Assembly: GCA_012838545.1 (NCBI GenBank)
Contig: DUPC01000031.1
Span: 34,148-98,147 of the forward strand
DNA from: Acholeplasmataceae bacterium
Lineage (GTDB): Bacteria > Bacillota_I > Bacilli_A > ML615J-28 > CAG-313
Direction of reading: 5' to 3'
DNA: 64,000 nt
Shown here one piece after another: positions 36,268-64,000 of the stretch. A program made the position numbers and the translations under genes. Position 1 is the stretch's first letter. Each line of letters opens with the position of its first letter. Under the pieces are notes generated by a model. That model was not told the origin of the DNA. It did no database searches and saw only the letters and a list, made by a program, of their open reading frames with translations.

Positions 36268-36296
36268 TTGAAAACGGGGGCGGTTTATGGTATAAT
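36268..36296 (+). promoter_or_regulatory. sigma-A promoter (extended -10) for lipoprotein amidase 1
   Basis: TTGAAA, a 17-nt spacer, then TGgTATAAT. Confidence 0.45.
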
Positions 36297-36318
36297 TTTC
36301 ACAGTGGAGGACAGGAAG

Positions 36319-38004
36319 ATGAAAGCTATAAAAATACGGTATTTTTTATTTATGATAGGTTTGGCATTTTGTTTGACCGGATGTAAGCCTTCAGTCAATT
36401 ATGACGAAATCGGACAAACACTTCTTGGCGATTTACCGGATTTAATCTTCGCCAATGAATTTCAATATGATTTTCCTGAAGAATACCAAGGTCATAAGAT
36501 TACTTGGGAGTTTTCGAAAAGCGATTATATCGATGAAAGCGGGAAGTTTATTGAACCGCCATTTCACGATGCGACGTTAAAACTGAGCGTTTTTGTGGAC
36601 GGCGAAAAAGCCGGAACCAAGAACATCACTTTATCGAGAAATTTAACCAACTATTTTAGCGAAATCGAAAAATATGTCAAAAGCTTTATCAAAGACCGCG
36701 CCCGCGGCGATGTCAGACTGATGACAACCTATTACGATATCGAGGGAATTGAAATCGGCTATACTTCTTCAAAGCCCGAGATTGTCGATAACACCGGTAA
36801 ATATTATAATCACGAGTATGATGAGGAAATCATCTTTGATGTTTCGGTATCATTTCGGGGAAAAACCCACGAATTTCAAGTCAAACATATATCCGTGGGA
36901 ATTCCCGACATGGAAAAAGTCGTCAAAATCGATGAATGGTTGCAAGAAGAACTCGCCAACATGACTTTCGTCGATGGAATGGAACTTCCTCAGACTCATC
37001 CTCTTTACGGGGGCAGAATCCGTTGGATAGCGGAAGACCCGTTTGTGGTTTTGAACAATAAGGATTTCTTCTTGCCGATGGATGAAGGCACATATATGTT
37101 GATGGCGGAAATCAATTATCCCGGGGCTTTTGAATATTTCCGATATTTTGTAGATTTGCAAGCAACCGAAATCAAAGACCCGTTAGAACGCGCCAAATGC
37201 TTTATTGAAGTGGCAACCCCGAAAGAAATCGAAGAATTTATCGTTTTGTATAATGGCGAGGGTGCGAATATTACGCGAAACATAATCGGCGATGATGTCA
37301 ATTGGCAAGTGCACGGAGGGACTAAACCCGAAGTTCCTCAAAACGTTTTGGACAGCAGAATGTATGAAGGGTACACCATGCCGAACGAAGATAATGTTTT
37401 ATGGATTGTCGTCCACGAAACAGGAATGAAATTGACGGGATTGTTTGCGGAGGCGTTTGACAAGGTTCAATGGGACCGGGCAACCGGAGACACAAAACCT
37501 GACAGCGTATCTTGGCATTATACCGTTGACGACCACCAAATCATTCAAAACTATGAAGACGACATTGCCTGTTGGCATGCAGGTGACGGCAGCGCAATCG
37601 GCGGCGGAAATAAAAACGGCATCGGTATCGAAATGTGTATCAATCCGGACGGAAAATACGATGCTTCTTTCCGAAACGACGCAAGACTTGTGGCATCACT
37701 TTTGATCAGACACAACTTGAATATGGCAAATGTCAAAAGACATCGCGACTTTATGTCCAAAGATTGTCCAGAAACAATGATTAAAGAAAGACGCTGGTTT
37801 GAATTCTTGGATTTGGTCGCCAAAGAATATATATCTCAAACTCTTTTGTCGCAATTCGAGATAACTTATGAAATCAACTCAGAAGCTTTGGCAACATGGC
37901 CAATCGCCGGAGTTTATCAAAAAGTTGATGGCTTTACGGAAGATATCACCGTTATTGCCAAAATTGCAAGCGAAGAGTTAAGCCTTGCGATAAAATTGAA
38001 TTAA
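36319..38004 (+). CDS. lipoprotein with unknown N-terminal domains and a C-terminal N-acetylmuramoyl-L-alanine amidase (Amidase_2/PGRP) domain
   Basis: The lipobox LTGC follows the signal peptide. The C-terminus reads VVHETG...WHYTVDD...WHAGDG..IGIEMC..KRHRDF..CPET, giving Zn-amidase His/His/Cys ligands. The RBS is GTGGAGGA. Confidence 0.75.
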   Translation: MKAIKIRYFLFMIGLAFCLTGCKPSVNYDEIGQTLLGDLPDLIFANEFQYDFPEEYQGHKITWEFSKSDYIDESGKFIEPPFHDATLKLSVFVDGEKAGTKNITLSRNLTNYFSEIEKYVKSFIKDRARGDVRLMTTYYDIEGIEIGYTSSKPEIVDNTGKYYNHEYDEEIIFDVSVSFRGKTHEFQVKHISVGIPDMEKVVKIDEWLQEELANMTFVDGMELPQTHPLYGGRIRWIAEDPFVVLNNKDFFLPMDEGTYMLMAEINYPGAFEYFRYFVDLQATEIKDPLERAKCFIEVATPKEIEEFIVLYNGEGANITRNIIGDDVNWQVHGGTKPEVPQNVLDSRMYEGYTMPNEDNVLWIVVHETGMKLTGLFAEAFDKVQWDRATGDTKPDSVSWHYTVDDHQIIQNYEDDIACWHAGDGSAIGGGNKNGIGIEMCINPDGKYDASFRNDARLVASLLIRHNLNMANVKRHRDFMSKDCPETMIKERRWFEFLDLVAKEYISQTLLSQFEITYEINSEALATWPIAGVYQKVDGFTEDITVIAKIASEELSLAIKLN

Positions 38005-38055: not shown

Positions 38056-38130
38056 TTTCATTGGCAATTGGGTAATATTTTATGGTATACTTGTTCTTGT
38101 ATAATATTAAAAAAGCAAAGAGGAAGATAT

Positions 38131-39813
38131 ATGGTAAAGAAAGTTTACGCCAATTTCGGAAAAATAATGGTTTTATTTATTTTGTTGTTTATGCTTGCGG
38201 GATGCAAATCCGAAATAACCGAAGAAAAAATCGAAGAATTGAAAACACAAATCCCCGACATGATTTTTTTAAATGATTTAATAAGTCTACCTTCCGAAAT
38301 AAAGGGAAATAAAATTACTTTCAGTGTTAATAAAGCGGGGTATATCGACGAAAGCGGTAAAGTTGTCAAAGCTGAAACCCATGACGTATCTTTGATATTT
38401 ACCGTATTTGCAAACGAAAAGCCCTTGTTTGAGAAAAAAGTAATTCTATCGCAAAAAATAGACGTCTTATTTAATGAGATTGAGAAATATGTTCGTTCAT
38501 TCATCCGCCATCGGACCGGCAACAATATCTATTTGGTTTCCAAATATTATGATTACGATGATATTTCTTTTGTTTATCAATCCAATCGAGTCGATATTAT
38601 CGATCATGACGGAACGCATCATTCCCATGAATATGACGAACCGGTTGTAATTGACGTTACGGTTAACGCCAGGGGGAGGACGCATCAATTTTCCATTGAG
38701 GTGGAAGCGGTTGGTGTACCGGATTACGAAAAATTAAACCGCGTTCAAACTTGGCTTGACGAATACATGGAAACAGTTGGATTTTTTGATGACATGGAAT
38801 TGCCAAAAACCCACCCTCAGTACGGAGGAATTATCAAATGGATTGCATCGGACCCTTTGGTGGTTATCGGACACAACCGATTTTTTTTGCCTAAGGAAGC
38901 CAAAAGGGTTGCTTTAATGGCGGAAATCACTTTTCCCGGCGGGGATAAGAAAAGCGAATATCTTTTCGATTTGCCGAGTTCTTCAATTGACGATTTGACC
39001 CGCGCTCAAAGATTTTTGGAAATTTGCTTTGAGGAAGATATGAACGAATTTTTCGTTTTATATGAGGGCACATCACCAAATATCACCCAAAATCTTCTTG
39101 AAGGAAATCCCAAAAACAAGCTTTACGGAGAAAAAAGGGAAGAACTGGATTTAGCGAATTTGGACAAATGGTTCTATCCGGGTTATGTAAAACCAAACGA
39201 GGATAATTTATTATTTATTGTAGTTCATGAAACCGGTATCAGAACTCCGGAAAAAAACGCTCAGTTTTATAGCGAATTTCAATATAATAAAGCTTATGTT
39301 GTGGATGAAGTGGATGCTTGGACTTCGTGGCACTATACCGTGGATGACCATTCCATATATCAAAGTTATCAAGATCAAACCGAATGTTGGCATGCAGGAA
39401 ACGGGGATATATATGGAATCGGCGTGGAAATGTGTATCAACTCGGACGGAAATTACAACGCATCTGTAATCAACAATGCCAGATTAATCGCTTCGCTTTT
39501 AATCAAACACAATTTAGGAATGAAAAGTTTGAAAAAGCATAATGATTACTCGAATAAACCGTGCCCGGAAACAATGCTTCAAAACAGACTTTGGTTTAAA
39601 TTCCAGAAATTGATAAGCCATGAGTATGTTTCGCAAGTTCTCCTTTCCCAGTTTGACATAACTTACACATTTGAATTAATCGAGGGGTTAACCGCCTGGC
39701 CGATCAATCAAGTTATATATAATGAAGGCGTAACAGCGGATTCAGTTCAAAATATTTCGGTAAACATTGAGGGAATCGAACTTGCATTTAAGATCGTAGT
39801 TCAAGCGAAGTGA
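38131..39813 (+). CDS. lipoprotein amidase paralog (Amidase_2 C-terminal domain)
   Basis: The lipobox LAGC follows the signal peptide. The protein is collinear with, and clearly homologous to, the 36319..38004 product: it shares the segments KYV.SFI, HEYDE, ELP.THP.YGG.I.WIA.DP, WHYTVDDH and CPETM. Confidence 0.75.
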   Translation: MVKKVYANFGKIMVLFILLFMLAGCKSEITEEKIEELKTQIPDMIFLNDLISLPSEIKGNKITFSVNKAGYIDESGKVVKAETHDVSLIFTVFANEKPLFEKKVILSQKIDVLFNEIEKYVRSFIRHRTGNNIYLVSKYYDYDDISFVYQSNRVDIIDHDGTHHSHEYDEPVVIDVTVNARGRTHQFSIEVEAVGVPDYEKLNRVQTWLDEYMETVGFFDDMELPKTHPQYGGIIKWIASDPLVVIGHNRFFLPKEAKRVALMAEITFPGGDKKSEYLFDLPSSSIDDLTRAQRFLEICFEEDMNEFFVLYEGTSPNITQNLLEGNPKNKLYGEKREELDLANLDKWFYPGYVKPNEDNLLFIVVHETGIRTPEKNAQFYSEFQYNKAYVVDEVDAWTSWHYTVDDHSIYQSYQDQTECWHAGNGDIYGIGVEMCINSDGNYNASVINNARLIASLLIKHNLGMKSLKKHNDYSNKPCPETMLQNRLWFKFQKLISHEYVSQVLLSQFDITYTFELIEGLTAWPINQVIYNEGVTADSVQNISVNIEGIELAFKIVVQAK

Positions 39814-44038: not shown

Positions 44039-45457
44039 TTATCTTTTATTTATGATTTCGTTAATGCTTTCTATATCGGAATAAGCAATTTTTTCTCCTT
44101 TTTCGGTTTGGGTGGTTTCTCTGCCTTTTCCGGTTACCAAGACGATATCTCCCGGTTTGGACATGGCGATGCCTAAAGAAATGGCGCTTTTTCGGTTCGT
44201 GATTTTGGAATAGTTGGTTTTGGTAACCGAAGAAGTCATCTGGTTTATAATATCCATTGGGTTTTCGTCATAGGGGTCTTCCGTGGTAAATACCACATAA
44301 TCCGCTAGTTCTGTGGCGATTTTTCCCATGAGGGGACGTTTGGTTTGATCTTTGTTTCCGGTTGCTCCACAAACAATAATCAATTGTCCGTCGGTTTTTT
44401 TCCTAACCTCGGTTAGCAAATTGGCGATAGAATTCGGGGTATGCGCAAAATCTATATATATATCCGCTTTGTTGACGGAAGCAATTTTTTCCAACCTTCC
44501 GGGGACGATAGGCGTACTGGCTAACCGTTTTTTTATTAGCGATAAGGGAATGCCTTCTTTTAAAGCAATGATTATTCCCGGCAAAGCATTTAATAAGTTA
44601 TAGGTTTCCGGTTTATTCAGTTTAAACCCTTGATAGATATTATTCTCGGTTTTGATGTCAAAAGTTAGATAGTTTTTTGTGAATTCAATATTTACAGCCT
44701 GAAAAGACGAAGGTTTATTGATACTGAAGGTGATGAGTTTTTTTATATCTCTAAAGCGGTTGGCATATATATCGTCTTGATTTATAATTGCCGCGCCGTG
44801 GGGTTTTAAGTGTTTAAACAATTGAAATTTGGCTGCGAAATACTCATCCATGGTTTTGTGGGTATTAAGGTGTTCATGGCTTAAATTGGTGAAGATTGCA
44901 TAATCGAACCTTATAGTCTCAATCCGTTTTCCGATTATACCTTCCGAAGATACTTCCATAGTGGCATGGGAAATGCCTTGCCTGACAAATTCATTTAAAA
45001 GACGGTACGATTCCGAAAGGAGCGGTGTGGTAAAAAGGTTTGGGTAAGTTTTTTCATTATATATAATTCCGTTTGTCCCTATTAGGGCAGAGTTAAAACG
45101 GCCGTTTAATAAGTGATTGATGATTGCGCATGTGGTGGTTTTTCCGTCGGTTCCCGTTACGCCTGTCAAAACTAGATTTTCGCAAGGATCGCCGTAAAAG
45201 ATTTTTAACAAGCGAAGCAATTCTTTAAAAGAGTTATCTACCACGATTACCGGAACCGTTGCTTGAAAATAGGAAGATTCCAAAATAATGGCGCTTGCTC
45301 CTTTTAGAGTAGCTTCAAGAATAAATTCAACACCTTTAAACTTGCTTCCCGAAAGCGGGACAAACAAAAAACCGGGTTGAACAAAACGCGAGTCTGTTGC
45401 AATTCCGGTAATTTGTGCATCTTGATGTACTTGAGGATACAATTCTTTTAAACGCAC
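44039..45457 (-). CDS. murE: UDP-N-acetylmuramoyl-L-alanyl-D-glutamate--2,6-diaminopimelate (or L-Lys) ligase
   Basis: Mur ligase P-loop GVTGTDGKTTT and the MurE motif DFAHTPNS. The start is GTG, preceded by the RBS GGTGA. Confidence 0.85.
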   Translation of the reverse strand: MRLKELYPQVHQDAQITGIATDSRFVQPGFLFVPLSGSKFKGVEFILEATLKGASAIILESSYFQATVPVIVVDNSFKELLRLLKIFYGDPCENLVLTGVTGTDGKTTTCAIINHLLNGRFNSALIGTNGIIYNEKTYPNLFTTPLLSESYRLLNEFVRQGISHATMEVSSEGIIGKRIETIRFDYAIFTNLSHEHLNTHKTMDEYFAAKFQLFKHLKPHGAAIINQDDIYANRFRDIKKLITFSINKPSSFQAVNIEFTKNYLTFDIKTENNIYQGFKLNKPETYNLLNALPGIIIALKEGIPLSLIKKRLASTPIVPGRLEKIASVNKADIYIDFAHTPNSIANLLTEVRKKTDGQLIIVCGATGNKDQTKRPLMGKIATELADYVVFTTEDPYDENPMDIINQMTSSVTKTNYSKITNRKSAISLGIAMSKPGDIVLVTGKGRETTQTEKGEKIAYSDIESINEIINKR

Positions 45458-45496: not shown

Positions 45497-47134
45497 TTAA
45501 TGTAAAGGAACAAGGAAGGAATAAGCAGAAAAGTTCTTATAAAAACAAATATATGCTTCGTCCTTGCTGGCGACGACAACACTGTTTCTAAAAAAGTCTT
45601 CTTTGGTGAAAGGTTTGATTTTTTCTTCGATTAGAGAGACCAAATCTTTCTTTTCGATTTTTCTAAAATCAATCCACCATTTCTTCGGTCTGGTTTTTGA
45701 TCTATCCAAATAATCTTGGATTACCAAAAACTCCAGTTTTTGAGAATATTCAGATATATTATCTTTTAAAAAGGAAGCAAATAAACGGTATAAACTATCC
45801 CGTTGATAAGAAGAAAAAGAAAATTTGTTGGCTTTCAAATAGTCGTAAAAAGCCAAAAAGAAATGGTAATAGGAATCAATTAAGTTATTTACAAAAATGA
45901 ATAGCAAGGTTTTGGGAAACCATTTGGAATTATAAATTTTGTTCAAGACAAACTCAACTTTTTTGCTTTCCGTTAAGTCGCTTTCCTTTAATAAATCGTT
46001 TCGAGTGATTTCGTAAGGCGGATTTTTACTGTATTTATACCCAAACTCTTCGACCAAATCGAGCATTCTGGTCCCCCTCAAAAACTTCAAAAAGCCTAAT
46101 TGAAGCTCGGTGGGTTGCCAAGAAATGACCTCGTTAAAGGAAGAAATTACCGAATCTTTGGTTTCCGAGGGGAGTCCCACAATGAGATCAAGGTGTAGTT
46201 CAATGTTGGTATTTTGTCTGATTGCTAGGATATTTTCCTTTAGTAATTTTAAGTTTTGTCGGCGATTTACCGCCACATTTACCTCTTCGTTTGTTGATTG
46301 AATGCCGATTTCGAAACGGATAAAACGGGAGTTTACGGTAGATAAATACTCGATTATTTCTTTATCCAAAAGATCCGCAACTATTTCAAATTGGAAAACC
46401 GTAGCAATGTTTTCTTCTTCAATCAGTTTTAGAATTGTTAAAAAATACTTTTTATTGATATTAAAGGTTCGATCCAAAAACTTTACAATCGGAACTCTTT
46501 TTTTGATGGCCTCTTTGATGATTCCCGTAACCTTTTCCAACGGAAAAAACCTAACTCGTTTTTCCAGCGAAGACAAACAGTAACTACAATCAAACGGGCA
46601 ACCCCGGCTTGATTCCAGATACAAAATTCGCTTGTGGTAATCCGTAACGCTTAAAGGAGCAATATTGATTTTGTTTAAGTCGGGCAGTATCATCGGGTTT
46701 TGAATAAACCTATCGTCTCGAAAATAAGATAGAGACGGTACATTCGATAATTCCCCATCGCCATTTAAGGCCATCAGCAGGTTGCTAAAAGCAACTTCCC
46801 CTTCACCACGGATTAAAAAGTCCGCTTTGGTTTCTTTTAAGAAATGGTTGGCGTTGTAGCTTACTTCTGGTCCGCCTAAAACAATTTTGATTTCCGGATG
46901 ATTATTTTTTAAAAGCCGGGATAATTTGATTACGTGAGTGATATTCCACAAATAACAGCTGAAACCGATTAGCTGGGGATTTTCCCCAATTAAGTCGCGG
47001 TAGATTTTGTCAATGCTTTCTTTAATTGTGAATTCTTTGATTTTCACCTCAAATGAGGTGTTGGCTTTTAATTGGTATAAAGCGATTGACGGATGGATGT
47101 ATTTGGCATTGATGCCAACAAGAACGGTTTTCAT
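45497..47134 (-). CDS. B12-binding domain-containing radical SAM protein (DUF4080-type)
   Basis: N-terminal B12-binding region, radical SAM motif CPFDCSYC and a long C-terminal DUF-like extension. Start is at the internal Met at 47134, preceded by the RBS TGAGGT. It ends 39 nt upstream of murE on the same strand. Confidence 0.75.
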   Translation of the reverse strand: MKTVLVGINAKYIHPSIALYQLKANTSFEVKIKEFTIKESIDKIYRDLIGENPQLIGFSCYLWNITHVIKLSRLLKNNHPEIKIVLGGPEVSYNANHFLKETKADFLIRGEGEVAFSNLLMALNGDGELSNVPSLSYFRDDRFIQNPMILPDLNKINIAPLSVTDYHKRILYLESSRGCPFDCSYCLSSLEKRVRFFPLEKVTGIIKEAIKKRVPIVKFLDRTFNINKKYFLTILKLIEEENIATVFQFEIVADLLDKEIIEYLSTVNSRFIRFEIGIQSTNEEVNVAVNRRQNLKLLKENILAIRQNTNIELHLDLIVGLPSETKDSVISSFNEVISWQPTELQLGFLKFLRGTRMLDLVEEFGYKYSKNPPYEITRNDLLKESDLTESKKVEFVLNKIYNSKWFPKTLLFIFVNNLIDSYYHFFLAFYDYLKANKFSFSSYQRDSLYRLFASFLKDNISEYSQKLEFLVIQDYLDRSKTRPKKWWIDFRKIEKKDLVSLIEEKIKPFTKEDFFRNSVVVASKDEAYICFYKNFSAYSFLVPLH

Positions 47135-47295
47135 ACTAATTACCTCAAACATAGTATACCACATTTGTTTCGCCGATTGCCAAAAAAACCAAAAGGGCAA
47201 ATATTCATGATAAAACTTTCAAAATTTGGTTAAAATAATGGAAACGCATTCATAAAAATAGGAAAATTCAAAGGGTAATACATTGATAATATTGT

Positions 47296-51406: not shown

Positions 51407-52219
51407 ATGGAACCGTCAAGAAACGATCGACAACTTAACTACGCTTTAAAGAAGAACAAACCGCGCCTTTTATTTCCCATCCTGAATACAGTTTTTGCGG
51501 TTGCGATAGCGGTATTTTTAACGGTTGTCGCGATTAAACAAAAACAACCTGTGTGGGTTTATTTTGTCATTTTTCTCTTTTTGGTGATTTATCCTTTAAG
51601 TAGTTGGTATAACAGTTATTTTTCCAAAAAATATGCCCGAAAAAAAATCTACAACGTTCAAGAAGAAGCCGAACAGATGTTACAATATTCCAAGCATTTG
51701 ATCCACAGAACCAAATATCAATTGACCGAAGAAAGCCGCTTAGCTTTTTTTGTGAATTTCACGGATACAATTAATGAACAAAAGGTAAGCTTCAACAATA
51801 AGACCAAAGAGTTCGAACCGTTAAGCATTGAAAAGAACAAAAAACTTGCGCTTTTAACGATTGGTTTATCGTTTGCGGGGGCGGCGATTGATCCGACCTC
51901 CAAAGAGGTGAAAGGAATCATGGGAATGGTTCCGTGTTCGATTTGGGTTAAGAAAAAACTAAGCCCGCCTCTGGCAGAGCCGGGAACGGTATTGGTTGAT
52001 TTTGGCGATTTTGCGGTGGAGGGGGAAGTTATTTTCCAATATCGCAAAAAGGAAGATATCTATTACGATTCCAAAAGCGGTTGGCTTTGCTTTGGATCAC
52101 GCAAACTTACCAAATTGGATGAAGCGGTAAAAATCGCTGATGAGGTTATTTTGGTTGTTCGAAACAACGATTTGGTATCCATTTGGGTAAAGATTAAAGA
52201 AAACATGGTTTTTAGTTAA
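51407..52219 (+). CDS. membrane-anchored hypothetical protein (270 aa)
   Basis: A gap of 9 nt separates it from the previous gene. An N-terminal TM hairpin is followed by a ~190-aa soluble domain, and a terminator follows. No family could be assigned. Confidence 0.5.
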   Translation: MEPSRNDRQLNYALKKNKPRLLFPILNTVFAVAIAVFLTVVAIKQKQPVWVYFVIFLFLVIYPLSSWYNSYFSKKYARKKIYNVQEEAEQMLQYSKHLIHRTKYQLTEESRLAFFVNFTDTINEQKVSFNNKTKEFEPLSIEKNKKLALLTIGLSFAGAAIDPTSKEVKGIMGMVPCSIWVKKKLSPPLAEPGTVLVDFGDFAVEGEVIFQYRKKEDIYYDSKSGWLCFGSRKLTKLDEAVKIADEVILVVRNNDLVSIWVKIKENMVFS

Positions 52220-61211: not shown

Positions 61212-61865
61212 TTATTGTTTAAGGCAATTGACATTTCTAAAAAAAAGATATTGGTATCTTTTGGAAACTTCTTCCCAATTAATTAAATTAAACCAAGCAT
61301 TGACATACTCTTTACGGTTGTTTTGGTATTGAAGATAATAACTGTGTTCCCATAAATCAATTGTTAAAAGCGGGAATAAGCGATACGGCAAAGGGGTGTT
61401 TTGGTTTATTGTTGTCATTAATCTCAGTTCACCGAAGGGACTTGCCACAAGCGTCACATAACCGGAACCGACAAACTCTGTTGTCAATCTTTTAAACAAC
61501 TCCTCAAAACCCTCCATTGACCCAAAATAGTTATTGAGAGCTTTATGAAGCAAATTGTCTTTGATTTGTTGATTATAAGGCGTCATGGTGGCAAAGTATA
61601 GTTCGTGGTTATATACTCCCCCCGCATTCACCCAAACTTGGTTTTGAATTTCCAAAGGCAGTTGATAGATGTTCAAAATTAAATCATACAGCGTCCAATG
61701 ATGATATCGAGGAAAGGTATTTAGTGTTTCATTCAGTTTGTTGATATACGATTTATAGTGTTTTTCGTAATGAGTTGAAACGACTTCCTCGCTTAAGTAC
61801 GGTTCCAATTCGTTGAAACGGTATCTTAAAGGCATCGGCGTAAACGGGTAAGTTAATTTAGTCAT
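61212..61865 (-). CDS. sodA: superoxide dismutase (Fe/Mn family)
   Basis: Fe/Mn SOD N-terminal helical hairpin (FNELEPYLSEEVVSTHYEKHYKSY) and the C-terminal DLWEHSYY motif. Confidence 0.9.
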   Translation of the reverse strand: MTKLTYPFTPMPLRYRFNELEPYLSEEVVSTHYEKHYKSYINKLNETLNTFPRYHHWTLYDLILNIYQLPLEIQNQVWVNAGGVYNHELYFATMTPYNQQIKDNLLHKALNNYFGSMEGFEELFKRLTTEFVGSGYVTLVASPFGELRLMTTINQNTPLPYRLFPLLTIDLWEHSYYLQYQNNRKEYVNAWFNLINWEEVSKRYQYLFFRNVNCLKQ

Positions 61866-61986
61866 GGTATCATTCCTTTCACAATATATATATTGTTATA
61901 AAGGGCAATTCATGATTATTTTAGGTTTCTTAAAAAACATGTTTTTAAAATCATGCGAATAAGATTTAATAAGGATGTGAGTGTAA

Positions 61987-62739
61987 ATGGATTTTAAATT
62001 TCATGATCTGAATGTCCATTATGTGGTGGAAGGAATCGGGAAGCCGGTTATTTTTCTTCATGGTTGGGGAGGAAACCAGAAAACTTTTGATAGAATCGTC
62101 CCCAGCTTAATAAATCATTACACCGTATATCGAATCGATTTGCCGGGGTTTGGGCAAAGCGATGCTTTAATCAAATCCTTTGCGCTTGACGATTACACCG
62201 CCTTTTTAGAAAACTTTATTAGGAAACTAAAATTGGATAGTCCGATTTTAATCGGCCACTCTTTCGGGGGAAAAATCATTTTGTCCTATTTAATTAAAAA
62301 CACCGATGTAAAAAAAGCGATTCTAATATCAAGTTCCGGGATAAAACACCCCTTAAGCTTAAAGAAACGCTTGCAGGTTGCATGGTTTAAGATAAGAAAA
62401 AGGTGGTACATATATAGAAAAGACGGAGTTGCTTTACAAAAACTATATGAAAGATCCGGAAGCGAAGACTATCGAAATGCGGGCTTGGTAATGAAAGAAA
62501 CACTATCTAAAATTGTCGCCAAAGGTTTACAACAAGAATTAAAGAAAATCAAACAAGAAGTTTTGTTAATTTGGGGGAAGCTCGATAAAACCACGCCTTA
62601 TCGCGATGCTTTGATAATGAATAAAAGAATCAAAAACAGCGGGCTTGTAACGTTCGAGGAAGCGGGACATTTTCCCTACTTGGAAGATCCTGTGCGGTTT
62701 TGTTACGTCCTAAAGAATTATTTGGAAATAACGGATTGA
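61987..62739 (+). CDS. alpha/beta hydrolase
   Basis: HGWGG oxyanion region and the nucleophile elbow GHSFGG. Confidence 0.85.
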   Translation: MDFKFHDLNVHYVVEGIGKPVIFLHGWGGNQKTFDRIVPSLINHYTVYRIDLPGFGQSDALIKSFALDDYTAFLENFIRKLKLDSPILIGHSFGGKIILSYLIKNTDVKKAILISSSGIKHPLSLKKRLQVAWFKIRKRWYIYRKDGVALQKLYERSGSEDYRNAGLVMKETLSKIVAKGLQQELKKIKQEVLLIWGKLDKTTPYRDALIMNKRIKNSGLVTFEEAGHFPYLEDPVRFCYVLKNYLEITD

Positions 62740-62743
62740 TTCT

Positions 62744-64000
62744 ATGGATATTTTAACCTTTATTTATGTATTTGGCTGTTTAGTGGTTATGGTTCCATTT
62801 TCCTACGAATGTTTTCTTCTTTTCCAACAAGAACATTATTCCGTTAAAAAAACAATTAATTCTCTTTATTTCCGTTATTTAAGGAATAAAGCCGTTTATG
62901 CCTTATATAGCGCTATTTTTTGGGCGCTTTTGGTTGCTTTTAATTTACCAACATATTTGTACCTAGGAACGGTTGTTTGCTTTCTTTGGTACATATATTT
63001 AATTCCCAAAGCTATTGTGCCTTTAAAAATAACCCCCCGCATTATCCGCTTAATGATTACACATTCTTTGTTAATAGTTTTGGTGCTTTTGCTTTTACTT
63101 GGGTTTTCATTTTTCTTGGGTTTTTCTTTATGCATAATAGTGCTACCTTTTTTGATGTTTTTTGCAAATACAATCAATTATCCAATAGAACAATTGATTC
63201 GGGGATATTACCTTAGAAAAGCAAGGAATAAATTAGGCAAAATGCGTCACTTAATTAAAGTTGGAATTACGGGCAGTTTCGGAAAAACTTCAACAAAGAA
63301 TATTCTTTCTCAACTTCTGAGTGATGCGTTTTTGGTTTTCTCGACTCCAAAATCATTCAATACTCCATTGGGGATTGCTTTAACGGTAAACAACATGCTT
63401 CCGAGTTATGCGGAGGTATTTATTACGGAAATGGGGGCGTTTCGGTTAAAAGAAATCAAATACTTGGCTGAATTTGTGAAACCGCAAATATCAATTATCA
63501 CCGACATCGGTCCTCAGCACTTATCCACTTTTAAAACCATGGATAACATTGTTAAAGCCAAAACGGAAATCTTGGAAAATAACAATCCCCCATTGATTGG
63601 GATTATTAATTCCAATTCAGCTTATTTGGTTGACTATTTGAAAGAAAAAACAAATTCCAAAACCGAACTGATTTGGGTTGGAGTCGAAAATGAGAAAGCC
63701 AATATATATGCATCCAATATTCAGATAACCAATAAAGACACTTCTTTTGATATCTACATCGACGGAGTATTAAAGGCAAATGTGCAAACGAAACTATTGG
63801 GCAGACACAACATCTACAATATTCTTTTTGGAGTGGCAGGAATAATTGCTTTGCAAAACTTAGGTTACGATTTTGACTTAACCAACTTAAGTGAAAAAAT
63901 CATAAACCTAATACCGATTGAACATCGGCTTGAATTCCAAAGGTGGGGTAACTGGGATGTATACGATGACAGTTACAATTCAAACATTCAAGGATTTTTA
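62744..64000 (+). CDS. murF: MurF-type Mur ligase (UDP-MurNAc-tripeptide--D-Ala-D-Ala ligase) fused to a ~165-aa N-terminal polytopic membrane region; 3' end lies outside the window
   Basis: Frame 2 is open from ATG 62744 to the window end. The first ~135 aa are hydrophobic, with about 4-5 TM segments. These are followed by the pre-P-loop helix, the P-loop GITGSFGKTSTK at 63266, and the MurF motif HRLE....YDDSYNSN near 63925. Confidence 0.7.
   Translation, partial: MDILTFIYVFGCLVVMVPFSYECFLLFQQEHYSVKKTINSLYFRYLRNKAVYALYSAIFWALLVAFNLPTYLYLGTVVCFLWYIYLIPKAIVPLKITPRIIRLMITHSLLIVLVLLLLLGFSFFLGFSLCIIVLPFLMFFANTINYPIEQLIRGYYLRKARNKLGKMRHLIKVGITGSFGKTSTKNILSQLLSDAFLVFSTPKSFNTPLGIALTVNNMLPSYAEVFITEMGAFRLKEIKYLAEFVKPQISIITDIGPQHLSTFKTMDNIVKAKTEILENNNPPLIGIINSNSAYLVDYLKEKTNSKTELIWVGVENEKANIYASNIQITNKDTSFDIYIDGVLKANVQTKLLGRHNIYNILFGVAGIIALQNLGYDFDLTNLSEKIINLIPIEHRLEFQRWGNWDVYDDSYNSNIQGFL

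Follow-up and report, generated by a model that had tools for sequence, protein, structure and literature searches.

Mur ligases in general

Mur ligases are textbook examples of soluble, three-domain enzymes of the cytoplasm, and one of them, MurF, is an antibiotic target. In the known enzymes domain 1 binds the precursor, a peptide carried on uridine diphosphate-N-acetylmuramic acid (UDP-MurNAc; PMC10214165). The gene considered here lies at the end of a 64,000-nucleotide (nt) stretch of DNA from an Acholeplasmataceae bacterium (contig DUPC01000031.1; this whole stretch is referred to as the window). It encodes a MurF-type ligase in which the canonical soluble domain 1 is absent and a membrane domain of five transmembrane (TM) helices stands in its place. 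Over the central ATP-binding domain and the C-terminal domain the family to which it belongs resembles canonical MurF (1GG4, A. baumannii 4QF5, 3ZL8 and 4CVK) in both sequence and fold. The two have in common the P-loop, the Mg-binding Glu and His, the KAKxE lysine and the GR(H)N, HR/GR and DxYNxN motifs, and both are linked in the genome to ddl, the gene for D-Ala-D-Ala ligase (Ddl). However, canonical MurF starts with a soluble domain 1 of about 70-80 amino acids (aa), whereas the window family starts with a five-TM domain of ~145 aa. The family also differs in a TPGxxxxG loop, in a C-terminal motif of its own, L(I/L)ENDLPDxF, and in a hydrolase that is co-encoded at most loci.

The covalent joining of a wall-precursor enzyme to a polytopic membrane protein has a precedent in the Mur chimeras. 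The membrane-linked cases listed in a survey of these proteins are MurD-FtsW and MraY-MurG, but only Mur proteins of more than 600 aa were screened (PMC10214165). This means that the window family, at about 525 aa, would have been missed. In the chimeras and in the window family alike, the joining presumably brings the soluble pathway to the membrane steps. However, the chimeras are end-to-end fusions of two complete enzymes, whereas the membrane part of the window family is unlike known proteins and replaces a ligase domain.

Two other enzymes invite comparison. The poly-gamma-glutamate synthetase PgsB/CapB is an amide ligase of the Mur ligase superfamily and, like the window family, has an N-terminal membrane anchor. 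It differs in that the anchor is a single helix, the enzyme works with PgsC/A/E and the reaction is the polymerisation of glutamate. The PgsB model is absent among the NCBIfam matches of the window protein at E<=0.1, and the neighbouring genes encode the hydrolase and Ddl. The serine racemase VanT is an enzyme of the D-amino-acid branch, of a normally soluble kind, that carries an N-terminal polytopic membrane domain. The likeness ends there, because VanT is of a different enzyme class and comes from a D-Ala-D-Ser resistance operon.

The family already has a name. NCBI records call its members MurF or, sometimes, "Mur ligase family protein". However, the membrane domain appears to be undescribed. 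A literature search found no paper describing a membrane-embedded MurF or its membrane domain, and in the pseudomurein literature mentions of "transmembrane" refer to other proteins. A genome paper on the Erysipelotrichales builds a MurF tree with no mention of a membrane domain (PMC12786226).

A MurF-type ligase gene with a membrane domain

Frame 2 of the plus strand is open from an ATG at 62744 to the window edge at 64000, with 419 codons and zero stops, as a preliminary description of this DNA had reported. The closest protein in the collection searched for relatives (5.8 billion proteins) is 525 aa long (P0001). It is listed at 100% identity, with one substitution over the 419 shared codons (I387 versus K387). 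The window holds the first 419 of 525 codons, about four-fifths, of the gene for a membrane-embedded MurF-type ligase. The features of this gene, and of the gene immediately upstream, are as follows.

61987..62739 (+): alpha/beta-hydrolase gene, first gene of the operon, 250 aa, GHSFGG nucleophile elbow (Pfam Abhydrolase_1/6, Hydrolase_4)
62744..64000 (+): membrane-embedded MurF-type ligase, 5' 419 of 525 codons (open frame, near-identical 525-aa protein, full-length model)
62744..63178 (+): N-terminal membrane domain, residues 1-145, five TM helices and one amphipathic cytoplasmic helix (predicted topology N-out/C-in)
62825..62839 (+): QQxxY motif (Q28, Q29, Y32) at the cytoplasmic end of TM1 (invariant or near-invariant in family alignments)
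63032..63049 (+): TxRxxR motif (T97, R99, R102) in the cytoplasmic loop preceding TM4 (invariant or near-invariant in family alignments)
63182..63253 (+): PxE motif (P147, E149) at the cytoplasmic end of TM5, then a basic helix that runs to about residue 166 and connects to the ligase (both models, conservation)
63266..63838 (+): central ATP-binding Mur ligase domain, with P-loop G177-T182, E229, H259 and K273 (Pfam PF08245, E=1e-40)
63923..63985 (+): start of the C-terminal domain, with HRLE (H394, R395) and DDSYNSN (D408, D409, N414) (MurF-type DxYNANP motif)

It is clear that the second part of the protein is a Mur ligase. Its sole Pfam match is Mur_ligase_M (PF08245) over residues 175-365. 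The P-loop GITGSFGKTSTK occupies residues 174-185 (nt 63263-63298) and the C-terminal motifs HRLEFQRWGNWDVYDDSYNSN occupy residues 394-414 (nt 63923-63985), which is where the preliminary description had put a P-loop and a C-terminal MurF signature. In a residue-level alignment to P. aeruginosa and E. coli MurF, K273 falls on the carbamoylated lysine of the KAKxEI motif. The P-loop, E229, H259, K273, R395 and DDSYN are invariant or nearly so among 85 aligned relatives, GRHN and H394 also belong to the conserved catalytic set, and the C-terminal domain family PF02875 is recorded for many members.

Among the Mur ligases the closest is MurF. The top NCBIfam model is murF (TIGR01143), which scores 183-243 bits against family members compared with roughly 50-95 bits for the murC, murD and murE models. 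The best sequence matches in the PDB are also MurF proteins, from P. aeruginosa (4cvk, E=1e-25), E. coli (1gg4) and T. maritima (3zl8). When the full model of the protein was compared by Foldseek, MurF again ranked first (4qf5, E=2e-25, about 380 aligned columns), above MurE, MurC and MurD.

The preliminary description had suggested that a membrane domain replaces the MurF N-domain. If so, MurF models and structures should align only beyond that domain, and this is what they do. The TIGR01143 match begins at residue 170 and the alignments to PDB MurF structures start at residue 158-173. The soluble domain 1 family PF01225 has no match in the window protein, and none is recorded in the Pfam annotation precomputed for the listed relatives. 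The 85 aligned relatives (31-75% identity) bear out the replacement without exception, as every one carries the membrane domain, in a hydrophobic N-terminal region of 158-202 residues.

The membrane domain

Kyte-Doolittle analysis places hydrophobic segments at about residues 1-24, 49-66, 72-87, 103-119 and 124-145, so that the 4-5 TM helices estimated beforehand become five, all within residues 1-145. An AlphaFold2 model of the full-length protein, built from the 85-sequence alignment (pLDDT 92.8, pTM 0.88), has helices at 3-29, 34-47, 49-65, 72-86, 98-118, 123-132 and 134-166, beyond which lie the central and C-terminal domains, both alpha/beta. Modelling the N-domain alone gives an identical set of helices (pLDDT 94.2). 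In both models residues 134-166 form one unbroken helix that links the membrane domain to the ligase. The connecting helix that enters the ligase matches the MurF pre-P-loop helix, and it is here, at residues 158-170, that the alignments to the MurF profile and to T. maritima MurF begin.

The distribution of charge indicates which way round the domain sits. The family mean of Lys plus Arg per sequence is 4.4 after TM1, 5.2 in the TM3-TM4 loop and 6.1 after TM5, compared with 0.2-0.3 in the N-tail, the TM2-TM3 loop and the TM4-TM5 loop. By the positive-inside rule this points to five TM helices that leave the N-terminus outside the cell and the ligase in the cytoplasm. Within the N-domain, complete or almost complete invariance is confined to the residues Q28, Q29, Y32, T97, R99, R102, P147 and E149 (the last two conserved at 99% across the family), and on the topology that the charge pattern suggests all of the conserved polar ones are on the cytoplasmic side. 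A Pfam scan gave no match within residues 1-170, and a fold comparison of the N-domain found no relative among known folds.

Conservation of the joined architecture

More than 100 full-length relatives are listed, with lengths of 500-540 aa and coverage of 94-100% of the query. When 1.84 billion cluster representatives were scored with a profile built from the N-terminal 172 residues, 2316 proteins matched at E<=1e-3, of which 1177 also did so at E<=1e-10. With a single exception, where it starts at residue 53, the domain begins in the first ~20 residues of the best 150 matches. All 60 full-length proteins in this set run on into the P-loop, as do 51 of the 80 shorter ones. Most of the other short ones stop at the junction, and they look like contig-end or frameshifted fragments. 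The membrane domain was in no case seen alone or attached to another enzyme. The preliminary description had proposed searching with the N-terminus separately and looking for the fusion in relatives. Both lead to the same answer, which is that the fusion is conserved.

An unusual architecture might always be an artefact of assembly or a frameshift, in which a gene for a membrane protein has become joined to a truncated murF. Nothing apart from the unusual architecture speaks for this. The same contiguous architecture recurs in independent assemblies, metagenome-assembled genomes and complete isolate genomes, and the idea is effectively refuted. The membrane-MurF architecture is real and not a fusion artefact.

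What if translation starts further in? There are in-frame Met codons at residue 138 (63155) and residue 167 (63242), and the preliminary description offered as an alternative a separate membrane gene followed by a MurF truncated to one of them. In this scenario the ligase would be a soluble two-domain enzyme and the hydrophobic part either a separate product or untranslated. However, the N-terminal 170 codons are conserved as protein and include the invariant residues. Compared with a 75%-identical orthologue, the proportions of nonsynonymous and synonymous differences (pN/pS) are 0.18/0.73 (about 0.24) for codons 1-165 and 0.12/0.70 for the ligase part, and such low values in both parts indicate protein-level constraint (purifying selection) on both in this frame. 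The ATG at 62744 is only 4 nt past the hydrolase stop, and in relatives the ligase start often overlaps or abuts the end of the hydrolase gene, an arrangement typical of translational coupling. A ligase starting at residue 167 would also have no domain for the sugar-nucleotide end of the acceptor. Together with the continuous helix 134-166 and the passage of all 60 full-length matches into the P-loop, these observations contradict the two-gene alternative in favour of a conserved single open reading frame, and an internal start is very improbable.

The operon and its partner genes

A genome scan with one genome per species found relatives in at least 596 species, and neighbourhoods were taken from the best 80 loci with about 10 kilobases (kb) on each side. 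The conserved order is alpha/beta-hydrolase, membrane MurF, ddl. A homologue of the hydrolase is immediately upstream of the ligase in 66 of the 72 loci with room for it, a Ddl homologue is immediately downstream in 66 of 75 (median gap 11 nt), and the complete trio is found in 60 of the 68 loci with room on both sides. In the window the upstream gene is the 250-aa open reading frame at 61987-62739. Its top NCBIfam match is an EstV-family lipase, at 132 bits and under the cutoff of 300. The preliminary description had overlooked this conserved partner, as well as the position of the family under the curated MurF threshold. The downstream gene lies beyond the window edge. On the contig that encodes the near-identical protein, ddl begins 15 nt past the ligase stop and has a good ribosome-binding site, which indicates that the window ends inside an operon. 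A promoter and terminator scan of 61700-64000 returned fewer promoter-like sites than shuffled sequence.

The distance between this gene and murE had been taken beforehand as a sign of an unconventional organisation. This is not supported, because the gene belongs to a tight operon with the ddl that follows past the window end. In Firmicutes such as Bacillus subtilis it is usual for murF to adjoin ddl and to stand apart from murE. Other wall genes are found near the cassette in more than a dozen loci. The genes mraZ-rsmH-ftsL and a penicillin-binding protein gene are immediately 3' of it in one lineage, MurE, MurC or MurD is encoded within a few kb in about eight loci, and cdaA-glmM in about eight loci. 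A second MurF-like gene was found within about 10 kb at none of the 80 loci. In a Gorillibacterium locus an Amj-family gene (alternative lipid II flippase; L092 13426-14238) is about 4 kb downstream of the cassette, which may be coincidence.

The partner Ddl has the hallmarks of an ordinary D-Ala-D-Ala ligase. The omega-loop Lys-Tyr of such ligases is kept in 78 of 78 partner proteins, and their best scores are on D-Ala-D-Ala models. A vancomycin-type module, in which an altered dipeptide would go with a variant MurF, was rejected on these two grounds. The van-type models score 100-250 bits on the partner Ddl against cutoffs of 495-775, and none reaches its cutoff. An M15 dipeptidase-like gene, another point of comparison with van-type systems, is seen in only two loci, both from Paenibacillus. 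Two details of the partner proteins may be recorded. They are long (377-404 aa), and in them the omega-loop Lys-Tyr is directly followed by a variable insertion rich in Gly and Lys (L005 11611-12816; L014; L089; L093), and the Ddl adjoining the near-identical ligase scores 243.7 bits, just under the NCBIfam Ddl cutoff of 262.

Distribution

Uncultured Bacilli, under the labels Erysipelotrichaceae, Bacilli, Tenericutes or Mycoplasmatota, make up most of the carriers, and Haloplasma is a carrier too. One query of the Erysipelotrichaceae type alone returned 7864 relatives at E<=1e-30. An unexpected result came from a Gracilibacillus query, which placed the family in many cultured halophilic or alkaliphilic Bacillales (Gracilibacillus, Evansella, Alteribacillus, Salibacterium, Alkalicoccus, Geomicrobium, Salipaludibacillus, Salicibibacter and Sinobaca) and in a few Paenibacillaceae (Paenibacillus and Gorillibacterium). 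Beyond the gut and rumen lineages the cultured carriers are strikingly rich in halophiles and alkaliphiles, including Sporosalibacterium and Haloplasma.

The family is otherwise one of the Bacillota, but some carrier contigs are labelled Muribaculaceae, Alistipes or Rhodothermales (L030, L035, L048, L058, L077 and L084). Some of these labels are probably binning or naming errors. The content of guanine plus cytosine (GC) at the locus ranges from 23 to 53% across carriers, and L084, with 53% GC on a 2.2 Mb contig, may indeed belong to another lineage. The idea of a mobile resistance gene was dropped after a tblastn search of plasmids found no membrane-type copy (best coverage 64%).

Proposed function

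What does a MurF with a membrane domain do? The known MurF reaction remains the most likely function. We lean, with modest confidence, towards a membrane-embedded isozyme of MurF that works at the inner membrane face and extends the MurNAc-tripeptide precursor by D-Ala-D-Ala. In this proposal ATP would drive the joining of D-Ala-D-Ala from the operon-partner Ddl to MurNAc-tripeptide from the ordinary MurC, MurD and MurE, and the reaction would take place on the cytoplasmic side of the membrane. The QQxxY, TxRxxR and PxE residues might do the work of domain 1 by binding the acceptor at its UDP or diphosphate end. A reaction at the membrane face would also release the pentapeptide product next to MraY. 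Consequently, carriers probably carry out at the membrane a step that is normally the last soluble one in the making of wall precursors.

Several observations weigh against this assignment. All tested members are under the curated TIGR01143 cutoff of 288.6 bits, the full-length ones scoring 183.5 (P0001), 231.6 (P0051), 205.8 (P0056) and 243.3 (Paenibacillus). With domain 1 missing, the binding of a UDP-linked substrate is assumed. The C-domain loop GDMxELG of MurF is replaced by TPG(I/M)(V/I)(D/E)xG, so that VVGDMAELG of the E. coli enzyme is aligned to ITPGIVDAG, and T436, P437 and G438 are invariant across the family. This altered loop implies that the incoming dipeptide enters a pocket that differs from that of canonical MurF. 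A literature search found no biochemical characterisation of any family member. Finally, there is the situation in Bacillales and Paenibacillus. Here the cassette sits outside any wall-gene context, among unrelated genes (nar operon, metH, Na/H exchanger). The two Paenibacillus loci examined (L090 12795-14615; L091 10802-12663) add the M15 gene, which resembles a D-Ala-D-Ala-dipeptidase (70 bits on the DdpX model, cutoff 176), and a gene for a 364-382 aa protein without a family match. A dipeptidase gene beside a D-Ala-D-Ala ligase is an odd pairing. In both Bacillales and Paenibacillus a canonical MurF is to be expected, and this hints that the cassette is a second, specialised system.

This last point leads to a different proposal, in which the hydrolase/membrane-ligase/Ddl module is an accessory paralogue that works beside a canonical MurF for some specialised purpose, at least in Bacillales. 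The purpose might be a particular growth condition, an envelope polymer or control of the precursor pool, and the acceptor might be non-standard. The proposal draws on the features just described, namely the unrelated neighbours of the Bacillales cassette, the two added Paenibacillus genes, the scores under the MurF cutoff and the altered loop, and also on the presence of the module in many cultured halo-alkaliphilic Bacillales and a few Paenibacillus whose genomes are 4-5.5 Mb. However, it fits poorly with the Erysipelotrichaceae-like and Mollicutes-related group, where the family is very widespread and the modules lie beside mraZ-rsmH-ftsL-PBP, murC/D/E or glmM. The lack of a second MurF-like gene near any of the 80 loci also counts against it, and the canonical MurF alongside the module is an expectation that applies to Bacillales. 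An indirect hint in the same direction is a table for the complete Erysipelothrix rhusiopathiae genome, which lists one murF, of either type (PMC9637936, Table 5). We consider an accessory role unlikely.

Could the acceptor itself be in the membrane? The same chemistry might be performed on undecaprenyl-diphospho-MurNAc-tripeptide (lipid I or lipid II tripeptide) or another membrane-held carboxylate, so that D-Ala-D-Ala would be added after the MraY step or trimmed lipid-linked precursors would be repaired. This is an enticing idea, as the domain for the UDP end has been replaced by an integral membrane domain that has no known fold relative and whose conserved residues, including two invariant Arg, would be at the cytoplasmic membrane surface. 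It would also suit a family that falls under the MurF cutoff and is co-encoded with a lipase/esterase-like hydrolase at nearly every locus with room for one. However, to our knowledge there is no precedent for a Mur ligase that uses a lipid-linked acceptor. The Gln-Gln-Tyr and Glu residues may fit a uracil/ribose nucleotide site as well as a bare diphosphate. Canonical soluble MurC, MurD and MurE are encoded in the same genomes, which implies that the tripeptide is made on UDP. The computed results do not distinguish UDP-linked from lipid-linked acceptors, and we regard the latter as distinctly improbable. An isozyme that carries out the MurF reaction on the UDP-linked tripeptide is preferred.

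Other genes of the window

The window also encodes a MurE, outside the operon, and the preliminary description was right to place it beside a radical-SAM gene.

44039..45457 (-): canonical soluble MurE, meso-diaminopimelate type (NCBIfam NF001126, 434 bits, cutoff 373)

This MurE would supply the UDP-MurNAc-tripeptide acceptor. Tandem paralogues of ~580 aa at 36268-38004 and 38068-39813 (+) have a C-terminal Amidase_2 domain (N-acetylmuramoyl-L-alanine amidase), and their N-terminal ~370 residues have no family match. Taken together, a canonical MurE and two Amidase_2 proteins indicate that the window organism makes peptidoglycan.

The neighbour of murE, at 45497-47200 (-), encodes a 567-aa B12-binding radical-SAM protein that is far under every named-family cutoff. 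Its best match is a KedN5/PhpK-type methyltransferase, at about 87 bits. Between a pyruvate:ferredoxin oxidoreductase gene and apbE there is a 270-aa open reading frame without a Pfam match (51407-52219, +). It seems to be conserved, as a 267-aa gene, also without a Pfam match, is in a similar place on the contig of a 42%-identity relative (L007 1552-2355).

What a membrane MurF would mean

The family is large and coherent, with thousands of sequence clusters, and in it an integral membrane domain has taken the place of the acceptor-binding domain of a Mur ligase. Its members come from Erysipelotrichaceae-like bacteria of the gut and rumen, from relatives of the Mollicutes, which have no wall, and from halo-alkaliphilic Bacillales in culture. 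Evansella cellulosilytica, Gracilibacillus and Paenibacillus are examples of cultured carriers in which the family is open to experiment. The conserved hydrolase flags a candidate additional enzyme of the wall-precursor pathway. Should the acceptor prove to be lipid-linked, the ligase with its dedicated Ddl and esterase-like hydrolase would form an unrecognised membrane-level branch or repair route of wall-precursor synthesis. If instead the protein is the working MurF of its carriers, the last "cytoplasmic" step in making the peptidoglycan precursor is physically held at the membrane, next to MraY. The substrate must then be recognised in another way than by the soluble enzyme, a point of importance for the design of inhibitors and the annotation of the pathway. 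A membrane MurF would surprise peptidoglycan biochemists.

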